Shown: in pieces, positions 2,350 through 30,654 of the stretch
Numbering within the stretch: position 1 is the first letter of the stretch
Layout of the letters: each line of letters begins with the position of its first letter
Notes under the pieces: generated by a model
Told to the model about the DNA's origin: nothing
What the model saw: only the letters and a program-made list of their open reading frames with translations
Database searches by the model: none
Position numbers and translations under genes: made by a program
Source: Nanobdellota archaeon
GTDB taxonomy: Archaea; Nanobdellota; Nanobdellia; Woesearchaeales; JACPBV01
Direction of reading: 5' to 3'
DNA length: 35,293 nucleotides
Assembly (NCBI GenBank): GCA_027623355.1
Contig: JAQBWB010000002.1
Span: 1 to 35,293, forward strand

Positions 2350-2384
2350 TAAAACTTAAGAACTCATAAGCAATCATAAGCAAC

Positions 2385-3830: not shown

Positions 3831-3831
3831 A

Positions 3832-4797
3832 ATGAAAGAACACAAAATAAAATTCGTAAAAAGAGGCACCCTTTTCCTACTCATAGCCCTAATCACAATC
3901 CTTCTAATTAATCAAGCCTATATCACTAAAATCCTACCAAAGAAGCAAGTCTTCAGAAAAGAGACCGAGTGGCAAACATACAAGTCTTCAATTCCAAACG
4001 CAACACTCCAATACGCCCTCTTCGGTGATTCGCATACACTCTATGCATCAAATCCAAATTTCATAAACAACTCCTATAACTTCGCGTCATCTGCAGAAGG
4101 TTACATCGAAACCTACTACAAACTAAGAAAGATAATAGAAATCGACAACATCGAAATAAAAACAATCATCCTAGAAGTAGACCCCCACACCTTTTCCGAA
4201 AAAACAAGAGCAAACGAAGGACTATTCCATGAATTAAGATATTACACCCAATTCATTCCTCTAAAAGAAATAGCAAAGCACAAAGAACAGAGCATCATCT
4301 CATTAGCAATAGAAAACCATTTACCCATTATCGGAAAAGGGGATGAAATACTTTCACAAGTAGTTTCAAGCGAGATAGATAAAGGATGGATTAGTAGCAA
4401 AAAAGTGTTTGAAGACAAAGACAAACAAAAAATAGCAAGAACCCAATACAAAAAACACTTCACTGCTTCCCCAAACCTAATACAAGAGAAAACATTCACT
4501 TACTTCAAAGAACTCCTCAAATTCGCAAAAGAAAACGAAATCAACATCGTTCTAGTCACCTACCCCCTCACTAAAGAATACCAAAAAGAGATAGAAAACC
4601 TACAATTAGATACTTACTACAACACCATTCTCAAAGAAGCAAATACTATCAGCACATCATACCATATTCTAGAATATCAAGCCCTATTCCTAGAACATCC
4701 AGAATACTTTGGAGATGCAGACCATCTTAACCATCAAGGCGCAGAACAATTTTCAAAAAAACTACAAGAAGACTTAATCACGCTTATATTTAAATGA
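3832..4797 (+). CDS. Membrane-anchored SGNH/GDSL-like partner of the MBOAT (DltD/AlgJ/AlgX-like)
   Basis: It starts 1 nt after the MBOAT stop and has a single N-terminal TM segment. FGDSHT is an SGNH block I-like motif and DADHLNHQGA near the C-terminus is a DxxH block V-like motif. Confidence 0.5.
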   Translation: MKEHKIKFVKRGTLFLLIALITILLINQAYITKILPKKQVFRKETEWQTYKSSIPNATLQYALFGDSHTLYASNPNFINNSYNFASSAEGYIETYYKLRKIIEIDNIEIKTIILEVDPHTFSEKTRANEGLFHELRYYTQFIPLKEIAKHKEQSIISLAIENHLPIIGKGDEILSQVVSSEIDKGWISSKKVFEDKDKQKIARTQYKKHFTASPNLIQEKTFTYFKELLKFAKENEINIVLVTYPLTKEYQKEIENLQLDTYYNTILKEANTISTSYHILEYQALFLEHPEYFGDADHLNHQGAEQFSKKLQEDLITLIFK

Positions 4798-9827: not shown

Positions 9828-10754
9828 ATGAAAAAGCAGGTAAAAATACTCGTAGCAATAGCAATCACCCTCGGACTACTGTTCATTCTAGCACAATCAA
9901 TAACACTAGAATCATTAAAACAAGCCTTCCAATCGTTCTCACCAATCATTCTAGCTATAGCATTCATAGCATATGTAGTAGCTAACTATTTCCGAGCAGC
10001 AAGATTCCAAGGAATGTTAGAAAAGCATGTCTCAACTAAGAACCTTTTCGGAATCGTCTGCCTCCACAACCTATTCGCACAACTTCTACCAGCAAGAACA
10101 GGTGAAGTAAGTTTCCTAGTCATGATAAAAAAGAAGGGCATAGCAATAGAAAACAACATCGCAACCTTAGGAATGGCCCGTATTCTAGACGCATTTGTCG
10201 TAGCTGCAATCCTGGTCATAGGAATCCTAGCCCTCCCCACAGCAGAAGCAAATCTCCTAACCATCTCAGTAGCATTGTTAATACTTCTAGCCCTAGGCCT
10301 ACTAACACTCTACGCCCGCCCCAACTGGATAACGATGATCATCGAATGCATTCTACCCAACAAACCAACCTGGCTCAAGACCCTAAAAACAAAAATCATC
10401 GGAACCATCCATGCATTATCCAAAATCCTCCACAACAAAGGAAAGATAAAACTCACAATCAACACCCTAGGCATCTGGCTCTTCATGTATATTTCAACCA
10501 TAGCACTCCTAAAAGCAGTAGTACCCGAAATCACCTTACTAGGCTCACTCTTAGTAGCAAGCCTACCGGTAATCGTCTCAGCATTACCCATCCACGGAGT
10601 TGCAGGATACGGATCAACCGAAGTAGCCTACCTCTTACCGTTAGTCTTACTAGGAATCTCAGCAGAAACAGCCATTGCAGCAGGATTCGCAATTCACTCA
10701 GTAGAATTAATCTTTATGCTAGCAGCTGCACCGCTAGGATTCTTTAACAGATAA
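9828..10754 (+). CDS. Flippase-like / lysyl-PG-synthase-TM-like (UPF0104) membrane protein
   Basis: 308-aa protein with about 8 TM helices. The N-terminus MKKQVKILVAIAITLGLLFILAQSITLESLKQAF...NYFRAARF is typical of this family, which usually lies next to GT2 genes. Confidence 0.5.
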   Translation: MKKQVKILVAIAITLGLLFILAQSITLESLKQAFQSFSPIILAIAFIAYVVANYFRAARFQGMLEKHVSTKNLFGIVCLHNLFAQLLPARTGEVSFLVMIKKKGIAIENNIATLGMARILDAFVVAAILVIGILALPTAEANLLTISVALLILLALGLLTLYARPNWITMIIECILPNKPTWLKTLKTKIIGTIHALSKILHNKGKIKLTINTLGIWLFMYISTIALLKAVVPEITLLGSLLVASLPVIVSALPIHGVAGYGSTEVAYLLPLVLLGISAETAIAAGFAIHSVELIFMLAAAPLGFFNR

Positions 10755-11882
10755 CGCATTCTTCCATTTACTAACATACTGTTCCCAGCTAAACACAGAA
10801 GCATAGTACAATTGAGCACCCTCACCGAGAGCATGACGCTTGCGAGCATCCAAAGCAAGTGATTCAACACCTGCAACCAAAGAATCAACATCATTAGCAA
10901 CTATCATCGCATTCTTAGCATTCAGATGGCACCTATGGGACTCAGTAGAAACCGCTAGTATTGCCTTTCCAGCACGCAAGAACACCGTAACCTTCGAAGG
11001 AAACCCATTATCTAAATACCGTAAAGACAAAGCAATGTCTCCTAAAGCAACAATCGAAGGCATCTCAGAAAATTCAGGCGAATAAGTAATCACATTCGAA
11101 TAAGCAGAAGGATCAAACAACGAACGTATATCTCCATCACTTCCCGCAATCAAAAACTTAATCCGAGAAAAGATTTCATGTTTACTCGCAGCTACAGCAG
11201 TAATCAAAGACACCAACATCTCACTGCCCTGATAATGAGCTAAGTTACCTATCCACAACACAACAATATCGTTATTCTCAATACCAATCTTCTTCCGCAA
11301 AGAACTTACAGCACCCATATCTGCCTTTTCGTTCCTATTAGCCGGCACAACAGGCATATCAAAGGACTCAACCGAAGGATACCTCTCCTTCAAATAAGAA
11401 ACCTCCCGAGTAGTAATCGGAACCAACACATCAGCCCCACGAAACACAATCTTCTCATATCCACGAAGAATAAAACTCAAAACCCCACCAGGAGCGCAAC
11501 TTTCATGCGGCAAACAATGCATCCGATACACATGTCGAGTCTTGAACAATTTACGCAAGATTAAACCAGGAAACGCACCATCCTCCAAACTAACAATCTG
11601 TGAATAGGTAGTATGTTTCATCAAGGAATAAGCCTTAGCAAAAAGCAAAGGCATCAATATCAACTTACGAATACTAAATCCAGGTGGAAGTGAAGAAAAA
11701 GGATGCTTAACCCTATGAACGGTACAATGCTCTATCTTCGAAGCATCACCAATAGAGGTAGTAACCAAATCAACCGCAAATCCACTCTCAATCAGAGCGT
11801 GTACAATATTAAGAATAGCTAATGGAGTCCCCCTATTGATAACATAGGGTTGAGGACACAATAAAATAACTTTTTCTCTCAT
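10734..11882 (-). CDS. GT-B fold glycosyltransferase (family 4-like)
   Basis: 382 aa. The N-terminal KVILLCPQPYVINRGTPLAILNIVHAL and the C-terminal FPSKVTVFLRAGKAILAV resemble GT4 retaining transferases. Confidence 0.65.
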   Translation of the reverse strand: MREKVILLCPQPYVINRGTPLAILNIVHALIESGFAVDLVTTSIGDASKIEHCTVHRVKHPFSSLPPGFSIRKLILMPLLFAKAYSLMKHTTYSQIVSLEDGAFPGLILRKLFKTRHVYRMHCLPHESCAPGGVLSFILRGYEKIVFRGADVLVPITTREVSYLKERYPSVESFDMPVVPANRNEKADMGAVSSLRKKIGIENNDIVVLWIGNLAHYQGSEMLVSLITAVAASKHEIFSRIKFLIAGSDGDIRSLFDPSAYSNVITYSPEFSEMPSIVALGDIALSLRYLDNGFPSKVTVFLRAGKAILAVSTESHRCHLNAKNAMIVANDVDSLVAGVESLALDARKRHALGEGAQLYYASVFSWEQYVSKWKNALSVKES

Positions 11883-11900
11883 AAACCGAATAACTTGGAC

Positions 11901-12830
11901 CTAATTAAATGTCTTGCGGTACCAAGCAACCGTTTCAGCAATACCATCCGGTAAAGAAGTAGGGGGTTCCCAATTAAGCAGCTTCTTCATCTTTTCACCA
12001 ATTAAAATCTTCTTCATAGCACCGTCAGGTTTATCCCTAGCATACGTAAAACTACCACTCCACCCAGCTGCCGATTTAATCATCTCAGCCAATTCGCTAA
12101 TAGAAACACCCTTAGTAACACCAATATTCATAACCTCATTCGCCGTAAAAGAATCAAACTGTTCAACAGACCGAATGATAGAGTCAGCACCATCCTCGAC
12201 ATACAACCATTCCCGTATAGGTTTACCCGAGCCCCAAATCTCAATAGTAGCATCTCCAGTATCCTGGGCCTCCATAATCTTCTTCAATAACGCTCCAAGA
12301 GCATGACTCCGAATAGGTTCAAAATGATCGTGAGGACCATACATGTTAGGAAAAATTAAATGAACGGGTTTAAAATCAGCATCCTGTTTACAATACGATA
12401 AGCAAGCACCCCACAACAGACGTCGAGGCATAGCATAACTCAAAATAGATTCATGTACCGCACCCTCCCAAAGAAGAGATTCCTCATATTCACCTAATTT
12501 ACCGGGGTACACACAATTAGGAACAACATTCAATACTTTCTTTACACCACTAGCATGACAAGCCTTAATTAAATTCAATCCAATATGAACATTATCCTCA
12601 AAGATCTCAACCGGATACAGAGCATTATAGCCAATACCACCTACGTGAGCAGCACAATGCACAACAAGTTCAGGCTTCTCAGAATCTAAAAAACTTTTAA
12701 ACTTTTCAAAATCACGAATATCAATGCCCTCGCCCCGACTACAAGAAACAACCTCATGACCTGCAGCCCTCAATTTAGGAACTAAAGCCTTCCCTAAAAA
12801 TCCAGTTCCACCCGTAACGACGATTTTCAT
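11901..12830 (-). CDS. GDP-L-fucose synthase-like (Fcl/GMER-like) SDR epimerase/reductase
   Basis: MKIVVTGGTGFLGKAL is the Rossmann motif. CAAHVGGIGYNALYP, FPNMYGPHDHFEPIRSHALGALLKK, IWGSGKPIREWLYVED and DKPDGAMKK match my recollection of Fcl. Where YxxxK is expected the sequence reads YAMPR. Confidence 0.6.
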   Translation of the reverse strand: MKIVVTGGTGFLGKALVPKLRAAGHEVVSCSRGEGIDIRDFEKFKSFLDSEKPELVVHCAAHVGGIGYNALYPVEIFEDNVHIGLNLIKACHASGVKKVLNVVPNCVYPGKLGEYEESLLWEGAVHESILSYAMPRRLLWGACLSYCKQDADFKPVHLIFPNMYGPHDHFEPIRSHALGALLKKIMEAQDTGDATIEIWGSGKPIREWLYVEDGADSIIRSVEQFDSFTANEVMNIGVTKGVSISELAEMIKSAAGWSGSFTYARDKPDGAMKKILIGEKMKKLLNWEPPTSLPDGIAETVAWYRKTFN

Positions 12831-13915
12831 GCGTAAAACTCCTTGATAGCAAAACTTATGGCATCAATCTGTTCATCAGTAACCTTAATAGACGATGGCA
12901 ACCATAATCCTTTGCCAGCAAATTCTTCAGTAACCGGAAACGAACCACTCACAGAATAAGCCTCCTGCGAATGAATAGGCGGATAAATAGGACGACTACC
13001 AAAACCTTTTTCCTTAAGAAATGCAACCAACTCATCTCGCCTAGAAACATACACATCGATAAACCAAGGTGCAGTATTTTCCAAATCAGTAGCAATAAAA
13101 GAAACCTCTTTAACCTCAGCTAAACCATCCTGATAGCGCTTAAACATTTCCTTCTTACGTGAAACTCGTGAACCCAATTTCTTCATCTGTTCAACGCCAA
13201 TTACAGCCTGCATATCAGTAAACTTGAAATTATAACCAATCGAATCGTGAAAGTCATTTCCACCCGAGCTTCTACCAAAGTCCTTCAACTTTCGCATCTT
13301 TTCATACAGACCATCATCGTCCGTAATCAAAGCACCACCCTGTCCTGTGGTAATAATCTTAGGAGCGCTAAATGAAAAGCTACCGATAGAACCATACCGA
13401 CCAATGTGTTTACCCTTGTAAAAACTTCCAAGAGACTGAGCAGCATCCTCAATAAAGAAAATACTGTGCTTATCACAAAAAGCTCTAACCAATTCTAAAT
13501 CATTAGTCCGACCATTAAAAGAAACATACATCAATGCCTTAGTTTTTGGAGTAACAGCTTTCTCAGCAGCCTCCAAGTCCATACATAAGGTATCCGAAGC
13601 AACATCAACAAACACAGGACTAGCACCAATCATCTTAGCAGAGTTAGGAGTAGCAATCATAGTCATATCAGGAACAAGTACCTCATCCCCAGCTCCAACA
13701 CCAGCAGCTAACAAAGCAAGTGACAAACTAATCGTACCGTTATTAGTAACAACACAATGCTTTGCACCTGTAAAGTCACAAATCATCTTCTCAAACTCCT
13801 CAGTTTTCTTAAATTCAGTCAACCAAGCTCCAGAAGACAGATAGGAGTTCATAGCCGAAACCTCAGCATCATCAATAACAGGCTCCATCTGTGGAATAAA
13901 ATCACTCATCCTCAA
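12827..13915 (-). CDS. DegT/DnrJ/EryC1/StrS-family PLP-dependent sugar aminotransferase
   Basis: 362 aa. The lysine motif is SFSAPKIITTGQGGALIT. The layout GAKHCVVTNNGTISLSLAL ... FFIEDAAQSLGS is as expected for the family. Confidence 0.85.
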   Translation of the reverse strand: MRMSDFIPQMEPVIDDAEVSAMNSYLSSGAWLTEFKKTEEFEKMICDFTGAKHCVVTNNGTISLSLALLAAGVGAGDEVLVPDMTMIATPNSAKMIGASPVFVDVASDTLCMDLEAAEKAVTPKTKALMYVSFNGRTNDLELVRAFCDKHSIFFIEDAAQSLGSFYKGKHIGRYGSIGSFSFSAPKIITTGQGGALITDDDGLYEKMRKLKDFGRSSGGNDFHDSIGYNFKFTDMQAVIGVEQMKKLGSRVSRKKEMFKRYQDGLAEVKEVSFIATDLENTAPWFIDVYVSRRDELVAFLKEKGFGSRPIYPPIHSQEAYSVSGSFPVTEEFAGKGLWLPSSIKVTDEQIDAISFAIKEFYA

Positions 13916-14321
13916 TCACCTTTTTATCTTTCTCAATTCCCGGGTACGGACCATTCTTGACCTCAAAAACCTCGGTACCATCCTCTAAAATGTGATACGA
14001 ATGACCTCCCAGCATAACCAAGATAGCCTGACCTTCTTTAATCGTAAACTTCCCAATAACCGACTCATCCTCGGCATACAAAGTAACCTCTAATGAACCC
14101 TTCTTAACGTACACAAATTCCTGTGTAATGTTTGATACACGCTCACAAACCTTATGTGAATGAGGTTTAGTAACATAGCCAGAATCATACCTCCAAGATC
14201 CAACCTGAACAAACTTCTCATCCTCAGTGTAGAATGATAAACCAGAACCTAAATTATTACCATCAATAATACGAGCATACTCCTTTCCTTCATGTTCAAT
14301 CTTCTGCATATTCTCTACCAT
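13902..14321 (-). CDS. Cupin-domain protein (possible sugar-nucleotide ketoisomerase/epimerase)
   Basis: I start it at ATG 14321 (MVENMQKIEHEG..), 4 nt after the upstream stop. The first cupin motif is PHSHKVCERVSNITQEFVYVKKG and the second is GGHSYHILEDG. It overlaps the DegT start by 14 nt. Confidence 0.5.
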   Translation of the reverse strand: MVENMQKIEHEGKEYARIIDGNNLGSGLSFYTEDEKFVQVGSWRYDSGYVTKPHSHKVCERVSNITQEFVYVKKGSLEVTLYAEDESVIGKFTIKEGQAILVMLGGHSYHILEDGTEVFEVKNGPYPGIEKDKKVIEDE

Positions 14322-14325
14322 AGTA

Positions 14326-15249
14326 TTAGTACCGCTTATAGCTGTATAATGTTTTATCCTTATAATAATTTTTAACACAAATATCTGCAATAATACCAGA
14401 GACAATCAAGTTCAATCCAATCAGAACTAAAAAGATTGCGACCGTAGGCAAAAAGGTATTAGACAAATCAACATCCTGAAAGATCTTCAAGTAAATAGAA
14501 AAGAGACCAGACACAAAACCAAGGAAACCTACCGATAACCCTAAGAATCCAAATACATGAATAGGTCTATTGGAATACTTCTGCCAGAACCACACCAAAA
14601 TAAGATCCATAAATCCCTTAAATAAGCGAGACATCGAATATTTAGTCTTACCATGTTTTCTGGCACGGTGATTCACCTTAATCTCACCCACGTTAAACCC
14701 TTTCCAAGTAAGTAACGCAGTAATATAGCGATGCATCTCACCAAATAATCGTAAATCTTCTAGACATTCTTTTTTATATACCTTAAGCGAACATCCAGAA
14801 TCATGAATCTTCTCACCAGTCATCCATCTTCGCAGAGGATTAGCGAGTGCAGAAAAGAATTTTTTAGAAAGTGAATCACGTCGAGCTGTTCTCCAACCAC
14901 TAATAGCGTCATACTTATCAGTTAAAGCTTCCAACATCAAAGGAATATCATGAGGATCATTCTGAAGATCGCTATCCATAACAACAACCACATCACCCGT
15001 AGCTTCTGTAAAGCCAGCCTCCCATGCAGAGCTCTGACCAAAGTTCCGTCTAAAGCGCAATGCAACAACAGATTTATCTTTTTTCTTAATCTGCATAATC
15101 TGCTTAAAGGTACCATCCGTCGAACCATCATCAATGAAGATAATTTCATACGTATGCTTCATCGAATCTAGCACCGATTTCAACTCGGAATACAAAGGAA
15201 CCATGTTAGCAGATTCATTGTACGTTGGCAAGATAATGCTTAATTTCAT
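14326..15249 (-). CDS. Polyprenyl-phosphate glycosyltransferase, GT2 with C-terminal TM pair (GtrB/ArnC/CsbB-like)
   Basis: MKLSIILPTYNESANM...IFIDDGSTDGT...VVMDSDLQNDP is the GT-A domain. Two C-terminal TM helices follow (VFGFLGLSVGFLGFVSGLF and TVAIFLVLIGLNLIVSGII). Confidence 0.8.
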   Translation of the reverse strand: MKLSIILPTYNESANMVPLYSELKSVLDSMKHTYEIIFIDDGSTDGTFKQIMQIKKKDKSVVALRFRRNFGQSSAWEAGFTEATGDVVVVMDSDLQNDPHDIPLMLEALTDKYDAISGWRTARRDSLSKKFFSALANPLRRWMTGEKIHDSGCSLKVYKKECLEDLRLFGEMHRYITALLTWKGFNVGEIKVNHRARKHGKTKYSMSRLFKGFMDLILVWFWQKYSNRPIHVFGFLGLSVGFLGFVSGLFSIYLKIFQDVDLSNTFLPTVAIFLVLIGLNLIVSGIIADICVKNYYKDKTLYSYKRY

Positions 15250-15272
15250 AGTCGTCTAGGGTTAAAATTCGC

Positions 15273-15280
15273 TATATAAA
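15273..15280 (-). promoter_or_regulatory. TATA box for the GT2-led operon
   Basis: The minus strand reads tttatata, 24 nt upstream of ATG 15249. Confidence 0.5.
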
Positions 15281-15428
15281 CATTTGTTTTCCACCAGTAT
15301 GTTCCACTGGGGGGATGCAAATGTGCTCAATCACCATCAAAGTGGTTATCGACACATTTGTTTTCCACCAGTATGTTCCACTGGGGGGATGCAAATGTGC
15401 TCAATCACCATCAAAGTGGTTATCGACA
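15281..15428. repeat. Perfect tandem duplication, 2 x 74 bp
   Basis: 15281-15354 and 15355-15428 are identical (catttgttttccaccagtatgttccactggggggatgcaaatgtgctcaatcaccatcaaagtggttatcgaca). The pair fills the gap between the hldC stop and the GT2 TATA box. Confidence 0.95.
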
Positions 15429-15435
15429 GCTTCGC

Positions 15436-15915
15436 CTAACCCTGTAACCTCCCAATTATTGAGGTAGTTGAATACCCATCTAAAAGCGTAACAACATGAA
15501 TTCTACCGCCATTTTTCTTTACAGTAGCACTTTCAATACAATCCTCGCCATACTCACTCCCATTGACATGCACCTCAGGTTTCAATACCTCGAGCAGCGC
15601 ATCAGGAGTCTCCTCTGAAAATATAGTAACATAATCAACACAACCTAACCCAGCAAGCACTCTAGCTCTATCCACATCAGAATTAATTGGACGCGAATCA
15701 CCTTTATTCCTCTTAACAGAGGCATCATCATTAACTCCAACAATCAACACATCACCCTGCTTCCGAGCTTCCTCTAAAAACGCAACATGACCTGCATGTA
15801 AGATATCAAACGTACCATTACACGTAACAATATTCTTTCCAGAAGATCGAAGACCATCAACAAGCGAAATCAATTCTTCGCGACTTTTAACCTTACCACT
15901 AGTAAGCATGTTCAA
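15436..15915 (-). CDS. hldC: D-glycero-beta-D-manno-heptose 1-phosphate adenylyltransferase (HldE domain II as a stand-alone protein)
   Basis: NGTFDILHAGHVAFLEEARKQGDVLIVGVNDDASVKRNKGDSRPIN is the cytidylyltransferase-fold HxGH motif. It closely resembles the C-terminal half of E. coli HldE. Confidence 0.85.
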   Translation of the reverse strand: MNMLTSGKVKSREELISLVDGLRSSGKNIVTCNGTFDILHAGHVAFLEEARKQGDVLIVGVNDDASVKRNKGDSRPINSDVDRARVLAGLGCVDYVTIFSEETPDALLEVLKPEVHVNGSEYGEDCIESATVKKNGGRIHVVTLLDGYSTTSIIGRLQG

Positions 15916-16855
15916 TCTCCTCTCGTAACTGATCTAAACTACAAGATGATGTACCAATCTTACCAACAACAATTCCTGCAGCATGATTAGCGAGCAAAGC
16001 AGCCGAATTCAAATCAGCTCCCGCAGTCAAAGCAAGCGCCAAGGTAGCAACAACCGTATCTCCCGCTCCAGAGACATCATACACCTCTTTAGCCTTCGTA
16101 GGAATTTCAGAGTAATCAGCATTCTTTTGGAACAATCCCATCCCTCGTTCACCCATCGTAATCAAGACATCAGCTCCTAGCTGACCCACTAAAGCATTAC
16201 CTATTTTAGCAATCTCATTCTCACCAGCAACCATCTCCTGAGCCTCCTTGATGTTTGGAGTAATCAACCGAGCACCAGCATACCATGCAGAGTGCTTAGG
16301 TTTAGGATCAACAATAATCGGAGCATCAGTAAGCTTATTTATAGAATCAAGAACATTCTTAGTAATAACACCTTTAGCATAATCAGAAATAATAATAGCA
16401 TCAATATCCTTCAATAACGGAGTAATCTTATCCAATAACATTTTTTCAACATCCGCACTCAAATAATCATCCTTCTCATGATCATATCGAATCAACTGTT
16501 GATTCTGGGCCATAATCCGAGTTTTCTTTGTTGTAGGCTTCGAAGCATCCTGAATAATACAATGAGTATCAATCCGTCTTTTCAACATCCCATTAGTAAG
16601 CGAAACACCTGCACCATCATTACCTATAACCCCAGCAACAAATACCTGCCCGCCTAAACTAGCAACATTACTAGCAACATTAGCAGCTCCACCCGGAATA
16701 AAAGCCTCCTTCAAAACTCTAACAACCTGAACAGGAGCCTCCGGACTAACGCGAGTAACATCTCCAAAGAGATAGACATCAAGCATAACATCTCCTACCA
16801 CCAGGATCTTTTTCTGCTTAAATCCCTCCAACAAACCTAACAGTTTATCTTTCAT
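15899..16855 (-). CDS. hldA: D-glycero-beta-D-manno-heptose 7-phosphate kinase (HldE domain I as a stand-alone protein, PfkB family)
   Basis: KILVVGDVMLDVYLFGDVTRVSPEAPVQVV, GGAANVASNVASLGG and VYDVSGAGDTVVATLA match the N-terminal half of HldE. Confidence 0.85.
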   Translation of the reverse strand: MKDKLLGLLEGFKQKKILVVGDVMLDVYLFGDVTRVSPEAPVQVVRVLKEAFIPGGAANVASNVASLGGQVFVAGVIGNDGAGVSLTNGMLKRRIDTHCIIQDASKPTTKKTRIMAQNQQLIRYDHEKDDYLSADVEKMLLDKITPLLKDIDAIIISDYAKGVITKNVLDSINKLTDAPIIVDPKPKHSAWYAGARLITPNIKEAQEMVAGENEIAKIGNALVGQLGADVLITMGERGMGLFQKNADYSEIPTKAKEVYDVSGAGDTVVATLALALTAGADLNSAALLANHAAGIVVGKIGTSSCSLDQLREEIEHAY

Positions 16856-17744
16856 GAGTATCTAACCATGCAAAATAATCTGCAATCGCCTCCTTGAGTT
16901 TCCATTGAGCAGTATATCCTAATGCAGACGTAGCCAAATCAACTGAGGCATGCGTATGCACCTGATACGATGCAGTATACGGGTTAGGAATCCATCTCTC
17001 CGATTTCGAACTACCCAAAACCGATTGTACCATTTGCAATACAGATGCAAACGGCGTTGCAATTCCAGTTCCAACATTATACACTCCAGATGAAGTAGCA
17101 TCTAACGCTTTAACCGTAGCACTAACAACATCCTTAACATAAATATGATCGCGCTTCTGATTCCCGTCTTCAAAAATACCTGGATCCTCACCCGATTGAA
17201 TCTGTTTTCTCCACTGATAAATCATACTCGAGCTAGCTCCTTTGCCAGCCTCTCGCATCCCAAACACATTGAAATAACGCAAGCCAACAACAGTAAGCTG
17301 ACTAAAATGCTCCTTAGCAATAACATCCATCTTCACCTTAGATCGAGAGTAAGCATTCAATGGAGCAACAGATTGACTTTCCTTCATAGGAGTTTCACCA
17401 TTACCATACACTCCAGCAGAGCTAATATACACAAGCTTAGCTTTTTTATCAAGTGCAAGCTTCAACACATTGCGAAACCCAGAAACATTAGCCCTAACCA
17501 TTTCCTCATCATCAGTAAACGTGGTATCCGTAATAGAAGCCTCGTGAATGATAGCATCAAAATCAGAATCTAAAGAAAACGGTTGAGAAACATCAATATC
17601 CAAAATACCGCCATCAAATCCATCTAAATTCTCAACATGACCCGAACTCAAATTATCCAAAACCGTAACATCATGCTTATCCTTCAAAGCATGCACAATA
17701 TTAGAGCCAACAAACCCAGCTCCACCAGTTACTAAAATTTTCAT
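16845..17744 (-). CDS. hldD: ADP-L-glycero-D-manno-heptose 6-epimerase
   Basis: MKILVTGGAGFVGSNIVHAL, VGLRYFNVFGMREAGKGASSSM, FEDGNQKRDHIYVKDV and NVGTG resemble E. coli HldD/RfaD along the whole length. Confidence 0.8.
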   Translation of the reverse strand: MKILVTGGAGFVGSNIVHALKDKHDVTVLDNLSSGHVENLDGFDGGILDIDVSQPFSLDSDFDAIIHEASITDTTFTDDEEMVRANVSGFRNVLKLALDKKAKLVYISSAGVYGNGETPMKESQSVAPLNAYSRSKVKMDVIAKEHFSQLTVVGLRYFNVFGMREAGKGASSSMIYQWRKQIQSGEDPGIFEDGNQKRDHIYVKDVVSATVKALDATSSGVYNVGTGIATPFASVLQMVQSVLGSSKSERWIPNPYTASYQVHTHASVDLATSALGYTAQWKLKEAIADYFAWLDTHER

Positions 17745-18118
17745 TAAACTTCCTCCGGAATCTCTATAGTAGAAAGATCAACAGCACCACTATCCTCACT
17801 TCGATATGAGTCAGAATCTTCGTGATGGGTACTAAATTCAAAAATCTCACTATCCTCCAATCCAGTAAAACGATGGAGTGTATTAGGAGTAATCAATAAG
17901 GACTGACCCGGACGCATAATCTGCCGCTCATCGCCCAATTCCATGAGCACCTTGCCTTTAGTAACGTAAAAAGTCTCATCTTTGTTCTTGTGTTGATGCA
18001 CACTACATCTAAAACCCTTCTTCAATTCCAGAATCTTGCCACAATACTCTTTATTGACAATCCAGACCTCTTTACCCCAAACCTTATCAACTTCTTTGTG
18101 TTTTGTAACAATATCCAT
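17744..18118 (-). CDS. Small cupin, type II phosphomannose-isomerase-like
   Basis: 124 aa. VWGKEVWIVNKEYCGKILELKKGFRCSVHQHKNKDETFYVTKG...LHRF is the PMI-type cupin pattern. Its stop overlaps the hldD ATG as TAATG. Confidence 0.6.
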   Translation of the reverse strand: MDIVTKHKEVDKVWGKEVWIVNKEYCGKILELKKGFRCSVHQHKNKDETFYVTKGKVLMELGDERQIMRPGQSLLITPNTLHRFTGLEDSEIFEFSTHHEDSDSYRSEDSGAVDLSTIEIPEEV

Positions 18119-18131
18119 GGTATCCTCTTGG

Positions 18132-18150
18132 GGTATGAACTATTCATACC
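18132..18150. promoter_or_regulatory. Perfect palindrome GGTATGAA-cta-TTCATACC between TATA box and first gene of the heptose operon (candidate operator)
   Basis: 8-bp arms with a 3-nt spacer, 14 nt upstream of ATG 18118 and 16 nt downstream of the TATA box at 18166-18173. This places it around the expected transcription start. Confidence 0.45.
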
Positions 18151-18165
18151 ATATACACTAGGAAG

Positions 18166-18173
18166 TATATAAA
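18166..18173 (-). promoter_or_regulatory. TATA box for the cupin-hldD-hldA-hldC operon
   Basis: The minus strand reads tttatata. It lies 48 nt upstream of ATG 18118, an unusually long spacing for this window. Confidence 0.4.
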
Positions 18174-18239
18174 GCTTACGCTTTAAACACGTTTTCCTCA
18201 CTAGAAAGAAGATACAAAAGTACTTATACTAGTATACCT

Positions 18240-19001
18240 TTGCATACTTTAGTGAAAAAGACCAAGATAGCAATCTCAGTAAATCCAACACTCCTTGCAC
18301 AGATAGATGCCAAAGTAGATGGCTCAATTATCAGATCCCGTTCTCAAGCCATGGAATACTATCTCCAAAAAGGCCTCCAAGAAAGCTCAATCACAACAGC
18401 AGTCCTATTAATCAGAGGCTCACACCACGATATCTGTCTAAAAACAATAAACAACGCAACATTACTCCAAAAGCAAATTCAATTCTTCGCAAATAGCGGA
18501 ATAAAAAAAGTCCTTATCGTAACCCAACACTCCACACTAACAAATAAACTACTCCTAGAAACAGAAAAAGCACCTATTGAAACCACGATTATCGAAAAAG
18601 AGGCAAAAGGCAACGCCCAAGCACTCCACGCAATAAAAGACCAACTCCCCGACACATTTATAGTAATGTCTGGAGACACCTACAACAAGTTCGACCTCAC
18701 CAAGATGATAAAAAAACATCTAGGCGCAGACAAACTAGCCTCAATGGGATTAATGACAAGATCAATTGCCGCAACCTATGGGAATGCCATCCTTGACGGG
18801 GACTTAATCATAGACTTCCAAGAGAAACCCAAAGCAATCTCCTCAAATATCGTAAATGCAGGAATCTACATCTTCAAAAAGGAAATCTTCGAGCTGTTTG
18901 AAAAATCAAGCTCACTAGAAAAAGACATATTCCCCAAAATAGCAAGAATAAAACAACTACTTGGCTTCTTCACCCACGGTGAGTATGAGCATCTAGAATA
19001 G
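18240..19001 (+). CDS. RHH DNA-binding domain fused to a degenerate sugar-phosphate nucleotidyltransferase-like domain
   Basis: The N-terminus KKTKIAISVNPTLLAQIDAKV...SRSQAMEYYLQKGL is RHH-like. The rest aligns by eye to NTP_transferase (GIKKVLIVTQH, GNAQAL, FIVMSGDTY, FQEKP, VNAGIYIF). The GGxGTRL signature is replaced by LLIRGSHHDI. The start is TTG 18240 or GTG 18252. Confidence 0.55.
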   Translation: MHTLVKKTKIAISVNPTLLAQIDAKVDGSIIRSRSQAMEYYLQKGLQESSITTAVLLIRGSHHDICLKTINNATLLQKQIQFFANSGIKKVLIVTQHSTLTNKLLLETEKAPIETTIIEKEAKGNAQALHAIKDQLPDTFIVMSGDTYNKFDLTKMIKKHLGADKLASMGLMTRSIAATYGNAILDGDLIIDFQEKPKAISSNIVNAGIYIFKKEIFELFEKSSSLEKDIFPKIARIKQLLGFFTHGEYEHLE

Positions 19002-21550: not shown

Positions 21551-21826
21551 GTGGGAAGGCGCACCAAAAAATGAGCACAAACCTACACAGTTGGCTAACC
21601 TCAAAAGTTCCTCGACTCCGCTACCCGCAGGACATCAACACAATAATTTAAGGCTGCTTCATTCCTGATCTCACCTGGTTCACTAAAGCATTAATCCCTA
21701 TGGACAGAGTTTCAACGTTACAGTTGAGACCACCTGCATAAGCAATGCCGCTTCTCCGGCTTCGACTCCCCTAAAGCGCGTTCAAGGTAACAGAAGAGCG
21801 CTACACTTCCAGCCTAGCCTTCCCAT
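21551..21826 (-). ncRNA. Signal recognition particle RNA (7S / long archaeal-type SRP RNA)
   Basis: The minus strand contains CCAGGUGAGAUCAGGAAUGAAGCAGCC, which matches the helix 8 motif (E. coli 4.5S CCAGGUCAGGUCCGGAAGGAAGCAGCC) and has a GGAA tetraloop. The 5' GGGAAGGC pairs with the 3' GCCUUCCC. GCUAGGCUGG is Alu-domain-like. Length is about 276 nt, with no coding potential. Confidence 0.85.
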
Positions 21827-22021: not shown

Positions 22022-25000
22022 TCACTTCTTTCTCTTCAAGTGCCTTCTAACACACATCCGAGTGTAGTGATGCTTTAGATGCACATGTGGATGCAGCACC
22101 TGACGCCACATCAACTTCCAATAGTGCCACGGCTTCTCCCATAGAGTATTTGGAGAGCTCTCCATAAAGTGGCCTACATACAACACATGCATCCGATCAT
22201 GTGCCTTTCGAGCAGCATGCACATTACCTTTCTTCAAATGCCCACGAATAACCTTTCGTAGCATCTTCATCTTAAACAACGGATGATCAAATTGCATAAC
22301 CCGTTTGCGATGCCTCTTAACCCGTTTCCACAGGTAGCGTTTTAGCAAGAAATTATGCTTGCCAGCATCAATCACCAAATAATGTCTGTTCAATTCCCGA
22401 TACAATGCATGTGCCTCCTCAACACGCTTTTTTCGTGTATAATGATTCAACGACTTGTGCACCTTCCAGAACCGTGCAAATGATTTGTTAGTATGCACTA
22501 GAGTGAAGAACACAGCCTTGTTCAACAAGAAGGAAGCTAATATCAGTAAGAAGATTCTAATAATTTGCTTGGGAGTGATTGTTTTGAACGAAAATCCTTT
22601 GAAACAATCAATGGGACAGTTCAGTTCATCCTCTCCCTGTCCACAGACACCGTTACCACATTTACATCCCGTCGCATCAAAGGTAGCATCATCCGAAATC
22701 CGCTGCCCAACCAAGATGTATCTGTCTTTACTAGAGCAAGCATCAATATGTAAGTCATAATACAACGTGTTTCCAACAGCAGTTTCAACTCCCGCAGCTA
22801 TAATTTCCCGAGCTATAATCTTCTCGATAAGTTTTCTTGAAACCTCTTGATCAATCAAACCAGTGTGCGTCACATTAATGTCCCAATAATTAGTACATCT
22901 ATTGTTAATGTATTCATCCCCGATACGCTGAGCGCTTTTAATAGTGACCAAACCATCGTGAGTCTCATTAGTAGCATCAATTTCAAGCAAGTTACCAAAC
23001 TGCTGCGTATTCGTTCCAGCAATAACAAAATAATCAACTCCAGGTAGTCGTGGAGTAACAAGGCCTTCTTTCAACAGATCAATGAGCTGGTTATTAACAT
23101 TAAACAGGTTGTTGTACTTACTTACTTTGTTAACCAAGAACTTATACACCTTCAGATAATTTTCAAGGAACGCTGCACCTTCATTAGGAACACCCACCAA
23201 GATAACTTTTTTCACTTTAGGGATAAAGGTATATTTCTGTGTTACATTATTAGCAACAAACGCATCATACAACGTTTTCTGAGCAACAATCCCCCCTAGA
23301 CTGTGAGCAGCAATGTACAAATTATCAAATTCTTCAACGTTCAACTCAATACTATCCATCAAATCTTGAGTAATATCATCTATTGTACGCGTACTACTAT
23401 ATCCATACGTCCACGTCTGGAACGGCTGCTCAGTAAGCTCGATATCAGCAATAATATCCTCAAACGTATCCGGACTACTAGTAAATCCGTGGACTAATAA
23501 TACGGCATCTCGCGAAGTACCATTATACACTTTCTCGAATGAAGAGTTCACACAGAATTCACAGATAGTTCCCATAATCGTGAATAACCCTACGCTTTCA
23601 TTGTCCAGGTACTGTTCAATCGATTCAATCTCTGCCGTCACCGTACCCGCATCCTTATCAATCACCCCACCTAATGGATTCCATTCATCATTCTGACGAG
23701 CAAAAATTTGCAATCCATCAATATCAATATTCTTAGTTTGATCCTCCAAATAAGCCAATGTCAATGTACTCGTTCCCGTATCCTCAATCCGCAAGTGCGA
23801 CGGGTTACCAATAATTTTCAGGAACTCATTGACTGCCTCTTCTACTGTTTCATTACGTGCAACGAATTCAACACCATCAACCGTAACATTACCTTCAGAA
23901 AGATTAACATCTGTCGTATCTGCTTCAAGTTCCGTCCGTTTGAATTTGCCTGTATCCGAATCAAAGCACTCCAAGCGGGAAGTCACATTGATAAGAGTCG
24001 GAACACACACATCTCCAGTACATCTGAGCATCGTCAAGTTCACATACTGCTCAGGGATACTTACCGTAAAGTCAATCTCATGCCCAGCACACTGGATTCG
24101 GAACGGATCCAATACTACTTGGAATCCTTCAGGAACATCCGTTTCCTCAACTGTCGACTGATGAATACTAACATCTCCCCCCTTCCCGCCTGAAACCCGT
24201 CTACAAGGAAGTGTTGTAGCACCTAACTGGAGACCATTTTTAGATCCAGGAGATGCCAAAGAAACCGATGCAGCAGCAGCCGCAGGTGCAGCCGCAGGTG
24301 CAGCTGCAGCCGGAGCCGGAGGTGCAGGCGAATAGCTCACAGGACACGTGCCACAATCTCCCATACAGTTACTACACGTTTCAGCCCCGTTACAAGTGCC
24401 ATCTCCACACCAATCACAATCAGCCTTACAGCTAGTAGCCTCACCCCCACCACAATACCCATCGCCACAGTAAGAGGAAGCAGCGACAGTAACCCTAACC
24501 TGTTCTGAGAAATAATACTCAGAATCATTGAAACCGATAGTTACGATAGACGAACCAGTATAATCCAGTGCAGGAGTAAATGTAGCAATCGAGGTTGTTT
24601 GATTAATCACCACATTAACTGTACTCGAAGTATTTCCAGTAACATTAAACGACATAGGGTCCCCATCTTGATCCGCATAATATTGCAACAACGTAATCGA
24701 TTTAGGCGTATTCTGCCCGACACTTAGCGTAAGCAAGCTATTATTGATGAACGGAGGACTATTCAAAATCGTCAATGTCTCACTAAACACGGGCGTCCCA
24801 TTATCAAACGTATCATCTGCCGTTGCCGATACATTCACGACATCCCCCTTAGAAAAGTTACTAGCACTAAACGTACCACTTATGGCATAGCTGCCTTGAG
24901 TTAAAGAAACAACCGTCTCATTTCTAGCAGGTGTACCATTCACATACCATCTAAAAGTAATACTTCCGCCATCCCCATCATCATCAGAATAGTTAGCCTG

Positions 25001-28000
25001 CACCCACAAATCATCCACAGATCGTACATTAGAATCATTCAACGTAACGTTATCCGCTACTGGAGGACTATTCACAATAGTAATCTCTGCACTGGCTACA
25101 GCAGGAGAGGTCCCTGCCACAGTATCCTTAGCAGTAGCTGTAACATATACAGTATTACCTCGAGAATAAAGCACACCAGTAAAGTTACCTACCGCGGTAC
25201 CTCCCGTGAGAATGGTACTAGCAGTCTTACTAGAGCTAAAGATACTATTTACATACAATGCAAATGTAACATTAGAAGTATCCCCATCCGGATCCGTAAC
25301 GGTAACATTCACACCGACAATATCTTTAGCCTTCACCTGCGTGTTGTTCAATAAAGGAACACCAACAGAAGGATACCCATTAGCGATCGTCGTAACATCG
25401 CTCCAATAAGTATCAGAAATATCGGTGCTATCATTCGCAACAATCGTCACATTAATCTCATCAGTTCGATTATAAAAACTGAGGCTAAGGTTCGATGACA
25501 CAAAGGTACCATTTGTAAGATTAAAAATAGTTTCATTAAAGATAGCAGTAGCATTCAGGTACCACGTAAATGTCAAACTCCCATTATCTCCATCGTTATC
25601 GATAAAGGTAGCATTAATGGAGGCATTTTCAGAGGAATTGAAAAACGGATTAACAAAAGTTGCAAAGTTAAAGGAAATATTTTGAACAAGGGGGGGACCA
25701 TTCGCAACCGTCAACGTAAGACTGGTAATCGTAGTATTATCTTCAGTATCATTTGCAACCACGGTCAAATTAATCTTATCATTCCTGTTAAAGTTAGCAC
25801 TATCAAGAGTAGAGAACACAGTAGCTCCACTAGCACCCAAAGCAATGAATTTATTAGATTGAACAACAACATTATTTACCCTCCAATATAGGTTAGCGGT
25901 TCCAGTATCTCCATCATAATCCGAATAATTAGCCTCCCCATACAAATCATCATTCGAATTAGGAGCACTATTATTAATTCCAGGTCTGGAAACATTTGAG
26001 GGCGTATTCGTAACCGTAGCATTCGTCCCCTTAATAGCCGCAACATTGTTAGTAGCATCCGTGGCATTAGCATAGGAAACAATCACTGTATTTTTCATGT
26101 AATTGTTATAACTAAAGTTCACCACAACAACCCCTCCGGATACAACATGATACACCGTCCTCCTATCCTCAATTCTTCCACTCACACTAAGATATATCGT
26201 AACATTCCCATTATCTCCATCAATATCGGTATAGGTAGTATTGGCAGTTACATTCGCACGCGAAATAGTTGTAGAAGTATTAATAATCGGCGCAGTAACC
26301 ACTGGAGCACCATTCGCAACCGTTAAACTCTGACTATTCACAACTGTTGAATTATCACTACTATCATTAGCATATACCGAGAAATTAATGATTAATCCTT
26401 TTGTAAGATTAGTACGCGACAGGTTCGATCGAGCAATAGTACTACTCAACACCGGCTGAATCGTTTCATTGAAAATTGCAGTACCATTCAAGAACCACGT
26501 AAAGTGCACACTACCATTATCTCCATTCGCATCTGTAAACGTTACATTCCCATACAAATCATCATGCGTTGTAATGGTCAGGGTATTATTCAAGGTAGCA
26601 TTAGCAAGCGTAGGAGCAATATTGCTTCCAGAGGCGACACAACTACTTCCGTCACAAGTACCATAATCAGGATCAAAGTTTCCATTTCTAAGAGTAGCAT
26701 CACAAAAATCACCATTACTACAAGAGGTGCTACAAGCATCTGCATAGATAGAACCTGCAGTCCCATTACACAAATAGCCTGAGGTCCAACATACGCTAGA
26801 TCCATCACACTGCCCATCCTGCAAGAAACCACTACCATTGATACTACTATCGCACGCAAATCCTCCTTCAGTTCCACTACAGGCGTTGAAATAATTCGCA
26901 GAGGAAATATCACTCACCGCGCACGCCTCCAATTTACAACTCATAGTTATGATGCCGGCAGATGAGCAAGCACTTGAAACACACACCCCAGTCCCATTCG
27001 GCTGATACCCTGAAGCAGAGCTGTCTGCACAAATCATCCCCTCACTCCCAGCAGTACAACTAGAATTCTCATTTCCTGAATGGAAATTAACTGCAACCCC
27101 TCCCGTCAAATTATCACCATATTCGCCTGATGAAGTACCAACCGAACAGGTAGCAGACGTATAACCATTCCGAGCACAAATGCCTTTTAACGTAGAGTCA
27201 GAATAATAATCACAACTTGCACCCAAGTGATCAATACATTCAGTTACATTATGACATCTATCAGCAGTACTAATCTGACTGTCCCCACTTAAATCAATGC
27301 ACGTATTAGTAGTATTACCAAACGACACATTAACGTAACATCCCTCCCCCCAATTCTCAGCCACACTCAACCGACAAGCAATCCCGCTAGCACTATTCTG
27401 TGCCATCGAGGTAATATTACCAAACGTAATGTTCTGATAGTGTCTACCTTCTGTAATAACATCAACCGTATGCCTACCAGTTGTATTACACGAATAATCC
27501 AAGAACGAATATCCTGCAACAGCATATACTCTGTCAACCGATTGAGCCAACGTAATCAAGCTACCATTCTCCAACAACAGATAACTATTCGCAGAAGAAA
27601 AATTATTGATCCGATCAAATAGCACATCCTCTCCACACCGCAATGTGTTCAACTTCAGATCATCCTGTGTATACGGATTATCTTCAGTCATCTCTCGATA
27701 CCGAGTTCCATTTACCGTAAAGATCGTCAAATTAGCATTACCTGAAGTCTCAAACTTAACCGTCCACTCCCCGCCCAATGCAGGATAACTCTGCACATTC
27801 AAAATTGTTAAACTAATCTCATACGTCTGATTCGAAAGGTGAGGTACAACCCATTCAATCTCCTCTAGCAATCCATTATGATCACGATCAACACCCACAA
27901 AGTCAACCTCCACTCGACCATCCGGAGTAATCCAATGTAAGATAACATTTGCCGCCTCAATCTCTCTCGGCAATGAGGAATAAGCAACAATATCTTCGTA

Positions 28001-30594: not shown

Positions 30595-30630
30595 ACAATA
30601 ATCAACAATAATCAACAATAATCAACAATA
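30595..30630. repeat. 10-bp tandem repeat, atcaacaata x 3.6
   Basis: acaata is followed by three perfect copies of atcaacaata (30601-30630). The period is one helical turn. The tract lies about 40-80 bp upstream of the TATA box. Confidence 0.9.
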
Positions 30631-30654
30631 GTGTTCTTATCTAATAAGAACACT
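30630..30654. promoter_or_regulatory. Perfect 11-bp-arm palindrome agtgttcttat-cta-ataagaacact
   Basis: It directly abuts the 10-bp repeat tract. It has the same arm-cta-arm layout as the palindrome at 18132-18150. Confidence 0.5.

Follow-up and report, generated by a model that had tools for sequence, protein, structure and literature searches.

We analysed a stretch of 35,293 nucleotides (the window, by which we mean this stretch at its full length) covering positions 1 to 35,293 of contig JAQBWB010000002.1, from assembly GCA_027623355.1 of a Nanobdellota archaeon (Woesearchaeales). The source is an aquatic metagenome, and the nearest relatives of the window are Woesearchaeota/Nanoarchaeota metagenome-assembled genomes (MAGs). 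The window contains a gene for a protein that joins a ribbon-helix-helix (RHH) segment to a domain resembling sugar-1-phosphate nucleotidyltransferases (NT), and divergently from this RHH-NT gene runs an operon of heptose-nucleotide synthesis genes. The gene, its predicted domains and the predicted control elements of the two promoters are as follows:

18133..18149, no strand assigned: predicted operator O1, GTATGAA-cta-TTCATAC, lying after the heptose operon's TATA box and ahead of its start codon, recognised by conservation
18166-18173 (TATATAAA) or, extended, 18166..18174 (TTTATATA), minus strand: TATA box of the heptose operon, read from the sequence at a distance of 48 nt from the ATG of the cupin gene
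18222..18230, plus strand: putative TATA-like box of the regulator gene, ACTTATACT, preceded by AAAAG and about 22 nt upstream of GTG 18252, placed by eye in an alignment
18232..18247, no strand assigned: predicted operator O2, GTATACC-TTT-GCATAC, degenerate, between the TATA-like box and the start codon of the regulator gene
18252..19001, plus strand: RHH-NT regulator gene, 249 aa from GTG 18252, placed from the open reading frame (ORF) list and the starts of homologues
18252..18386, plus strand: predicted NikR-type RHH DNA-binding domain, residues 1-45 (strand KIAISV, helix 12-20, RSRSQ turn, helix 30-44)
18393..18998, plus strand: sugar-1-phosphate nucleotidyltransferase-like domain, residues about 48-249, a predicted catalytically dead ligand sensor (PF00483, AlphaFold2, Foldseek)
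18411..18443, plus strand: degenerate G-loop I54-K64 (IRGSHHDICLK), standing for xGGxGTRLRPLTxxxPKP and including a 9-residue deletion

The longest frame in the mechanical ORF list runs from TTG 18240 to 19001 and encodes 253 aa, the length given by a first-pass annotation of this DNA. The frame itself stands, but GTG 18252, giving 249 aa, is the more likely start on comparison with homologues, because every homologue begins at that position, with an N-terminus of the form M-[KT]-K-x-K-I-A-I-S. A homology search returned 569 close relatives of the regulator, all of about 249-250 aa, with identities to the window protein of 61-100% among the 120 relatives listed. Their public names are 'sugar phosphate nucleotidyltransferase', 'nucleotidyltransferase family protein' or 'hypothetical', and for the regulator itself Pfam, NCBIfam and the source annotations recognise the enzyme-like domain alone. 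As a whole, what the first-pass annotation had observed in the sequence was borne out with small corrections, and its interpretation proved largely right.

The proposed RHH N-terminus was recovered by profile searches and by structure prediction. RHH_1 was the top Pfam match in 23 of 23 family N-termini tested (best E 3.8e-6). When searched against the PDB, an N-terminal profile built from the wider family matched E. coli NikR (1q5v/2hzv) at E 1.2e-10, an RHH antitoxin at 1.5e-6, P. horikoshii NikR at 2.6e-5 and CopG at 1.3e-4; the NikR match needed this diverse-family profile, and a narrow N-terminal profile of the heptose subfamily found just a weak antitoxin match. AlphaFold2 models residues 1-50, at a predicted local distance difference test score (pLDDT) of 86-97, as an extended segment (1-11) followed by helices 12-20 and 30-44, with the RSRSQ turn invariant. 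The topology is strand-helix-helix with a (G/S)-x-(S/T/N)-type turn opening helix 2, the pairing of the strand requiring a dimer. Furthermore, this stretch is the best-conserved part of the protein (KIAISxDxxLLxxIDSKVDGSIIRSRSQAIEYFLRKGL). By profile and predicted fold, the N-terminus of the regulator is a member of the RHH superfamily, and we infer that the protein binds DNA as an RHH dimer or as a dimer of dimers.

The remainder of the protein matches Pfam NTP_transferase (PF00483) with E 2.1e-23 and 83.6 bits against a cut-off of 21.2, over profile positions 28-208 of 245; because profile positions 1-27 are uncovered, the G-loop part is left without a Pfam match. The AlphaFold2 model depends on the alignment supplied: 30 close homologues gave a pLDDT of 58, and 121 sequences including distant relatives gave 96.2. 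The latter model (predicted template modelling score 0.87) begins with an extended segment and two helices, after which comes a complete alpha/beta nucleotidyltransferase fold. The top folds returned by Foldseek were Arabidopsis VTC1 (E 2.1e-18, template modelling score 0.73), human GMPPA/GMPPB and ADP-glucose pyrophosphorylases (AGPase), and GMPPA is among the best matches to this domain by both sequence and fold. An origin specifically from HddC or RmlA, as put forward in the first-pass annotation, was not supported, since GDP-mannose pyrophosphorylase (GMPP) and archaeal GlmU-type enzymes score better.

All motifs cited earlier for this domain (GNAQAL, MSGDTY, FQEKP, NAGIYIF and, in place of the catalytic loop, IRGSHHDI) can be read in the translation. 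The loop was aligned with two canonical nucleotidyltransferases carrying AGGLGTRLRPLTYYITKAMVP and CGGEGTRLRPYTYTIPKPML, which are encoded beside the distant relatives at loci L081 and L083 (compared loci are cited by L numbers). Its loss, previously described as a substitution, is more drastic than that: a 9-residue deletion takes out GTRLRPLT in every RHH-fused protein aligned, down to family members of 26% identity. In the heptose subfamily the GG of the loop is cut to [KR]G and the loop is conserved as [LI][KR]G[ESD][HD]; the C-terminal WxDxG motif has an invariant His (H247, GEYxH) in place of its Asp, which some distant members keep. Thus, of the metal ligands, the G-D Asp (D142) is present and the second acidic ligand is replaced by His in the heptose subfamily. 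Invariant or nearly so are D142 (G-D), G177 (Y-G), E191-K192 (EKP), N202-G204 (NAG) and E223 (SLE). In RmlA/GMPP-type enzymes, the elements lost here bind the phosphates of the nucleoside triphosphate (NTP) and the second metal; those retained form the lining of the sugar-phosphate/nucleotide pocket. NCBIfam enzyme models score well under their cut-offs, with 37 against 300 bits for HddC (NF049965), 76.6 against 292 for Arch_glmU and 53.4 against 320 for rmlA_long. In agreement with the suggestion of a pocket kept and catalytic residues lost, the predicted fold is complete and the GD, EKP, NAG and SLE motifs are kept, with the GxGTR loop gone. Reading the domain as a ligand-binding pseudoenzyme is, on these alignments, well founded.

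The operon upstream and on the opposite strand, whose presence and cupin-hldD-hldA-hldC order had been described correctly, is assigned by Pfam and TIGRFAM matches:

17744-18118, minus strand: small cupin, first gene of the operon (Cupin_2 1.7e-12, MannoseP_isomer 3.6e-8), related to the cupin domain of type II mannose-6-phosphate isomerase
16845..17744, minus strand: HldD-like ADP-glyceromanno-heptose 6-epimerase (TIGR02197, E 1.8e-78, 263.9 bits, cut-off 274.6)
15899..16855, minus strand: HldA heptose-7-phosphate kinase (TIGR02198, E 2.7e-109, 365 bits, above the cut-off of 345)
15436..15915, minus strand: HldC heptose 1-phosphate adenylyltransferase, last gene of the operon (TIGR02199, E 3.3e-52, 176 bits, cut-off 181.5)

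The hldC gene closes the operon because the next gene, encoding a family 2 glycosyltransferase (GT2), has its own TATA: the gap between the two is 187 nt and contains a TATA-like box. Inside this gap, a 74-nt unit is tandemly duplicated at 15265-15412 (copies 92% identical); it has short internal inverted repeats, the first copy holds the TATA-like box of the GT2 gene, and the unit has no Rfam match.

To assess linkage, one genome per species was scanned, which yielded 131 loci with relatives of the regulator; 80 of these (L001-L080), encoding proteins about 50-89% identical to it, were fetched and compared. Upstream flank of 4.5 kb or more was available for 54 loci, and 52 of them carry heptose-nucleotide genes there, on the opposite strand. 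The make-up of the operon varies among loci, from cupin-HldD-HldA-GmhB-HldC to GmhA and a 301-aa deoxyhypusine-synthase-like protein followed by HldA-GmhB-HldC, with mixtures of the two, but the association with the regulator does not. The window operon has the cupin and neither GmhA nor GmhB.

Several peculiarities of these operons were seen along the way. Across L001-L080 the first gene encodes either a small cupin or the SIS-domain protein GmhA, never both, and the second either HldD or the 301-aa deoxyhypusine-synthase-like Rossmann protein. The pattern suggests non-orthologous replacement, of sedoheptulose-7-phosphate isomerase by the cupin-type isomerase and of the epimerase by the deoxyhypusine-synthase-like protein. 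Pathway genes are also fused, as GmhB-HldC (361 aa, L003:2421-3506) and as an HldE-like HldA-HldC of about 500 aa (L070:3766-5271 and L079:4100-5584). At L035:4074-5828, in a Woesearchaeota MAG, a LAGLIDADG homing-endonuclease-like gene (276 aa) sits between operator and cupin and a DUF1643 gene (195 aa) between cupin and HldD; the operator still heads the enlarged operon.

The perfect palindrome GGTATGAA-cta-TTCATACC spans 18132-18150; both it and the 48-nt distance from TATA to ATG agree with the first-pass annotation. In the window by itself, perfect inverted repeats with 8-bp arms show no significance (11 matches, at about 6 places, against a shuffle mean of 5.7). Across the 80 loci, the exact 14-base core GTATGAANNNTTCATAC occurs once per locus in 64 and with one mismatch in a further 11, and shuffles of the same 813 kb are expected to contain 0 exact cores and 0.2 one-mismatch cores. 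The significance of O1 therefore rests on conservation across loci, not on window statistics. Information content reaches 2 bits in the half-sites and 0.2-0.9 bits in the 3-nt spacer and the flanks, the flanks accounting for 0.2-0.3 bits. Because the arms never co-vary, O1 is better explained as a sequence-specific protein site than as an RNA hairpin.

The position of O1 is also conserved. In most loci 1-20 nt separate it from the first start codon of the operon, in a few as many as about 60 nt, and this holds whichever gene comes first; in other loci it is found 5-20 nt downstream of a B recognition element and TATA box (CGAAAG-ATTTAAATA on the operon strand). The usual spacing between an archaeal TATA box and the transcription start is about 23-27 nt. 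From this spacing, the start of the operon transcript would fall inside O1 in every locus, in the window some 23 nt after the TATA, as had been expected of the palindrome. Moreover, O1 stays with the operon where other genes part the regulator from it (L004, L044, L046, L051, L059, L063, L077 and L080).

In three further loci (L133:3661-5426, L107 and L147:1399-3150) the operator GTATGAA-N3-TTCATAC precedes a non-homologous GDP-heptose-type cassette instead of HldA/HldC. This cassette encodes an HddA-like GHMP kinase (top NCBIfam match HddA at 3e-68, under cut-off) and a canonical NTP_transferase with an intact GG-K-GER loop. An RHH-NT gene is again divergent next to the cassette in L133, where it is 40% identical to the window protein, and in L147. 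An operator-first scan of 241 million metagenome records, using the operator and TATA pattern alone, gave 71 hits beside the regulator and/or heptose genes (50 beside both) among the first 120; the remaining 49 hits, operator only, are heterogeneous in GC content, often lie inside ORFs and look like background. The window contains no further operator copies, matches with 2-3 mismatches being at chance level, and no recurrent extra site was found in the 80 loci. Hence, in the window, the 80 loci and the metagenome scan, no regulon was found beyond the heptose cassette and the regulator itself.

The half-sites of O1 are those of the E. coli NikR operator, with a spacing of N5 here. NikR being the closest solved relative of the RHH domain, these identical half-sites tie O1 to a NikR-like RHH. 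In addition, of 5 distant family members examined, 2 have GTATGA/TCATAC enriched in their upstream regions (3 and 2 sites per 175 nt against about 0.1 expected). We consider it very probable that the regulator is the DNA-binding factor for O1.

The promoter of the regulator gene carries similar half-sites. The TATA-like box has counterparts of the form AAAGT[AT]TAAATA / AAAGTTTTTATA in homologous loci, and since it lies about 22 nt before GTG 18252, the mRNA would be leaderless or nearly so. A CATAC half-site ending at most 10 nt from the start codon is present in 44 of 81 sequences, after GTA[AT]TAC or GTATGAA and often with a middle TACTAC. Typical forms are TATAAATA-GTAATAC-N3/4-TACTAC-N3/4-TTCATAC(C)-ATG and GTATGAA-N3-GTACTAC-N3-TTCATAC. 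Half-sites placed between the TATA and the start codon in this way suggest autoregulation. A second palindrome, tatactagtata, had been reported at 18224-18235; it is actually at 18225-18236 and consists of the TATA-like box and the left half of O2. We rejected it as a functional palindrome, since it is conserved only in L001, whose protein is 89% identical, and elsewhere what is conserved is a TATA followed by half-sites.

These observations lead us to a model of regulator, operator and repression at the heptose operon that we regard as probable. More specifically, two NikR-type RHH dimers, joined through oligomerised nucleotidyltransferase-like domains, would bind the half-sites of GTATGA-N5-TCATAC, which in O1 are one helical turn (11 bp) apart. 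Because O1 covers the predicted transcription start, its occupancy would be expected to block recruitment of RNA polymerase or initiation, and weaker binding to O2 over the regulator's own start would provide autoregulation. The dead nucleotidyltransferase pocket would sense a heptose-derived metabolite, either the nucleoside diphosphate (NDP)-heptose end product or heptose-1-phosphate / 1,7-bisphosphate. The logic we prefer is end-product co-repression (feedback), as in NikR, MetJ and GMPPA. The domain identities, the lost catalytic motifs, the conserved synteny and the conserved operator with its position are shown by the comparisons above; from these we infer that the protein binds DNA, that it represses rather than activates, how it oligomerises, and which ligand it senses and with what effect. 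For the specific ligand, the chances are about even.

The closest parallel is NikR, a tetramer in which two RHH dimers flank a central metal-binding tetramer, and whose E. coli operator is GTATGA-N16-TCATAC (PMC7055735). Both proteins have an RHH (closest solved relatives 1Q5V/2HZV and, from P. horikoshii, 2BJ1) followed by a C-terminal ligand-binding oligomerisation domain, here predicted; the inverted half-sites are identical, and NikR is a ligand-dependent repressor of a neighbouring operon. They differ in the sensor, a roughly 80-aa ACT-like nickel-binding domain in NikR and a nucleotidyltransferase fold of about 200 aa here, in the half-site spacing (N16 against N5) and in the presumed ligand, a sugar metabolite rather than a metal. 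No NikR_C nickel-binding domain was found in the regulator, for which Pfam gives NTP_transferase alone after the RHH, in agreement with AlphaFold2 and Foldseek. Because this domain is absent and the operator spacing differs, the regulator is not a NikR; a different spacing would be expected where another C-terminal domain fixes how the two RHH dimers are arranged.

For the sensor, the parallel is GMPPA, a non-catalytic GDP-mannose pyrophosphorylase paralogue that binds GDP-mannose and restrains GMPPB (PMC11228364). GMPPA (7D72), plant AGPase large subunits and eIF2B gamma/epsilon are likewise pseudoenzymes of the nucleotidyltransferase fold, and GMPPA senses a nucleotide sugar for feedback. 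GMPPA, however, acts by protein-protein allostery and has a C-terminal left-handed beta-helix, whereas the output here would be an RHH bound to DNA. No such beta-helix is present in the regulator, which ends after the nucleotidyltransferase domain at 249 aa; given this and the predicted DNA-binding output, it is not a GMPPA.

Arc, MetJ and CopG resemble the proposed arrangement in binding as a dimer of dimers to two sub-sites about one helical turn apart that overlap a promoter, MetJ with a small-molecule co-repressor, but they are minimal RHH proteins of 45-105 aa without a separate enzyme-derived sensor. Trigger enzymes are a further comparison: PutA combines an RHH with proline catabolic enzymes, NadR a helix-turn-helix with a nicotinamide mononucleotide adenylyltransferase, and BirA belongs to the same group. 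They too fuse a DNA-binding domain to an enzyme-type domain of the regulated pathway, PutA also by way of an RHH, but there the enzyme domain is active, while here the loop is deleted and the nucleotidyltransferase of the pathway, HldC, has an unrelated fold. By analogy, the regulator is predicted to work like a ligand-gated RHH repressor of the NikR or MetJ type with a GMPPA-like sensor.

Several points weigh against this reading. The N-terminus of the window protein scores 16.7-17.8 bits with Pfam RHH_1, under the cut-off of 20.5, and the strand residues are K-A-S in the heptose subfamily as against R-T-T in NikR, despite the identical half-site; distant family members have R-T-T, as in NikR. 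In the shortened loop, the nearly invariant Lys K64 and G56 persist, so that residual nucleotide chemistry is possible. The O2 of the window is degenerate and its spacer 1 bp shorter than in L003, and autoregulation may be weak here. Sequencing runs containing the window sequence are DNA metagenomes only, with zero RNA runs. Finally, the operator is common to pathways of the ADP-heptose type and of the HddA/HddC type, whose end products differ in nucleotide and anomer. This weakens the simple idea that the end product is the ligand, and brings an early common intermediate or subfamily-specific ligands into play.

The last point bears on the alternative that survives best, namely substrate induction, in which the apo-protein represses and a precursor or intermediate (for example heptose-7-phosphate, or heptose-1,7-bisphosphate / heptose-1-phosphate) releases it from the operator. 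The two cassette types share early intermediates only, and an operator downstream of the TATA fits either sign of the ligand. Nevertheless, the pocket of this fold is suited to a sugar-1-phosphate plus a nucleotide, and the nearest precedents, NikR and GMPPA, answer to an end product or to product excess (PMC7055735, PMC11228364); we consider induction by substrate unlikely.

A far smaller chance is left to the regulator being a trigger enzyme, an active if unusual nucleotidyltransferase (making, for example, an alternative NDP-heptose) that also binds DNA like PutA, BirA or NadR. Its public annotation as a sugar phosphate nucleotidyltransferase, the conservation of D142, E191-K192, the NAG motif and E223, and the Gly and Lys left in the shortened loop would suit such an enzyme. 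But all members examined, down to 26% identity, lack the GxGTR loop and with it the Arg that binds the NTP phosphates, the second metal Asp is His in the heptose subfamily, the enzyme-specific NCBIfam scores stay far under cut-off (76.6 against 292; HddC 37 against 300), and the operon has its own adenylyltransferase, HldC. Because the signature loop is deleted, the regulator is predicted not to be a functional PF00483 enzyme.

It is equally improbable that the palindrome serves another factor or forms an RNA hairpin in the 5' leader, where it would lie beside a GAGGA Shine-Dalgarno-like motif, with the RHH-NT protein a mere conserved neighbour acting perhaps on heptose enzymes by protein-protein contact, as GMPPA-type pseudoenzymes target proteins and not DNA (PMC11228364), since the arms are invariant while spacer and flanks vary with zero compensatory change, the half-sites at the regulator promoter stand in non-hairpin arrangements (direct repeats or sets of three half-sites), NikR, the closest RHH relative, has an identical half-site, this half-site is enriched before 2 of 5 distant members, and the RHH is the best-conserved part of the protein.

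Repression of the heptose operon by the RHH-NT protein, the reading we retain, concerns one branch of a broader family. When 1.84 billion cluster representatives were searched exhaustively, 4377 matched at E<=1e-3 and 423 (50%-identity clusters) at E<=1e-10; most of the matches listed are full-length RHH + NT proteins of 240-290 aa, with identity down to 26%. Members with a named source belong to Aenigmarchaeota, Micrarchaeota, Nanohaloarchaea and Woese-, Pace- and Nanoarchaeota. Distant members are encoded beside a canonical NTP_transferase (L081), a UDP-N-acetylglucosamine (UDP-GlcNAc) 2-epimerase with or without an NTP_transferase (L083, L084) or a NAD-dependent epimerase/dehydratase (L086), and all those examined share the loop deletion. 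RHH-NT fusions may be, at roughly even odds, nucleotide-sugar-responsive transcription factors in several DPANN lineages and perhaps some bacteria, with subfamilies tuning different surface-glycan precursor pathways. The pathways in question, again about as probable as not, would be ADP-/GDP-heptose here and UDP-GlcNAc 2-epimerase or other nucleotidyltransferase cassettes elsewhere.

Two observations concern the provenance of family members. At L085:5001-5828, a 275-aa RHH-NT homologue lies on a 268-kb contig also carrying trigger factor, a bacterial-type NusA and inorganic pyrophosphatase; because of the trigger factor and NusA, this member is probably bacterial, perhaps from the candidate phyla radiation, and its vicinity has no sugar genes and no GTATGA sites. 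Many MAG records with the Woesearchaeota-type locus (L001 and others) are titled 'uncultured Methanosarcinales archaeon' (binchicken co-assemblies), which looks like mislabelling.

Elsewhere in the window, the heptose operon heads a glycan island on the minus strand (10734-18118) that also encodes a GT2, a second cupin-like ORF, a DegT-type aminotransferase, a NAD epimerase and a GT1/GT4 glycosyltransferase; only the first four genes of the island are behind the operator. A second cluster occupies the left end (737-4797, plus strand), with a dehydratase, a GT2, an MBOAT protein and a DUF1574 protein. An archaeal signal recognition particle (SRP) RNA (RF01857) was identified at 21553-21824 on the minus strand (111.7 bits, E 8.7e-25), so that the mechanical ORFs over this stretch are spurious; this RNA and the Woesearchaeota/Nanoarchaeota relatives mark the window as archaeal. 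A giant ORF at 22022-29992 on the minus strand, adjoining the glycan-synthesis island, encodes 2656 aa with many N-x-S/T sequons, domain repeats and stretches rich in Cys, as well as a GHSLGG-type alpha/beta-hydrolase motif close to the C-terminal third, and is probably a huge secreted or surface glycoprotein of a kind common in DPANN. Two further long, perfect palindromes were seen, AGTGTTCTTAT-cta-ATAAGAACACT at 30630-30654 (11-bp arms), between a Na/Ca exchanger gene and the giant ORF, and AGATTAATCT-aa-AGATTAATCT at 132-153.

The locus thus appears to encode a one-component repressor of the RHH type, conserved across several DPANN lineages, whose sensor module is previously undescribed. 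In line with the first-pass annotation, which did not recognise the fusion as a described regulator class, a full-text literature search found, within the library covered, no description of an RHH-NT fusion, of RHH regulators in DPANN or of the regulation of archaeal heptose synthesis, although such an absence is not proof. Under this assignment, many database entries that now bear the name 'sugar phosphate nucleotidyltransferase' or 'hypothetical protein' would be corrected. A NikR-type head on a dead nucleotidyltransferase would be a novel construction for a one-component regulator and a candidate nucleotide-sugar biosensor. Archaeal NDP-heptose enzymes have recently drawn interest because their products are innate-immune agonists (PMC11461863). 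The circuit suggests that surface glycans containing heptose matter enough to these episymbionts to be kept under tight control. DPANN archaea, whose genomes are tiny, have few recognisable regulators, and there is essentially no knowledge of how they control gene expression. What the locus offers is a testable circuit of regulator, 17-bp operator, target operon and likely ligand class, conserved in many Woesearchaeales and related lineages. If the reading is true, it would be the first defined ligand-sensing regulator with its operator and regulon in DPANN archaea, and its sensor a new module for nucleotide sugars.

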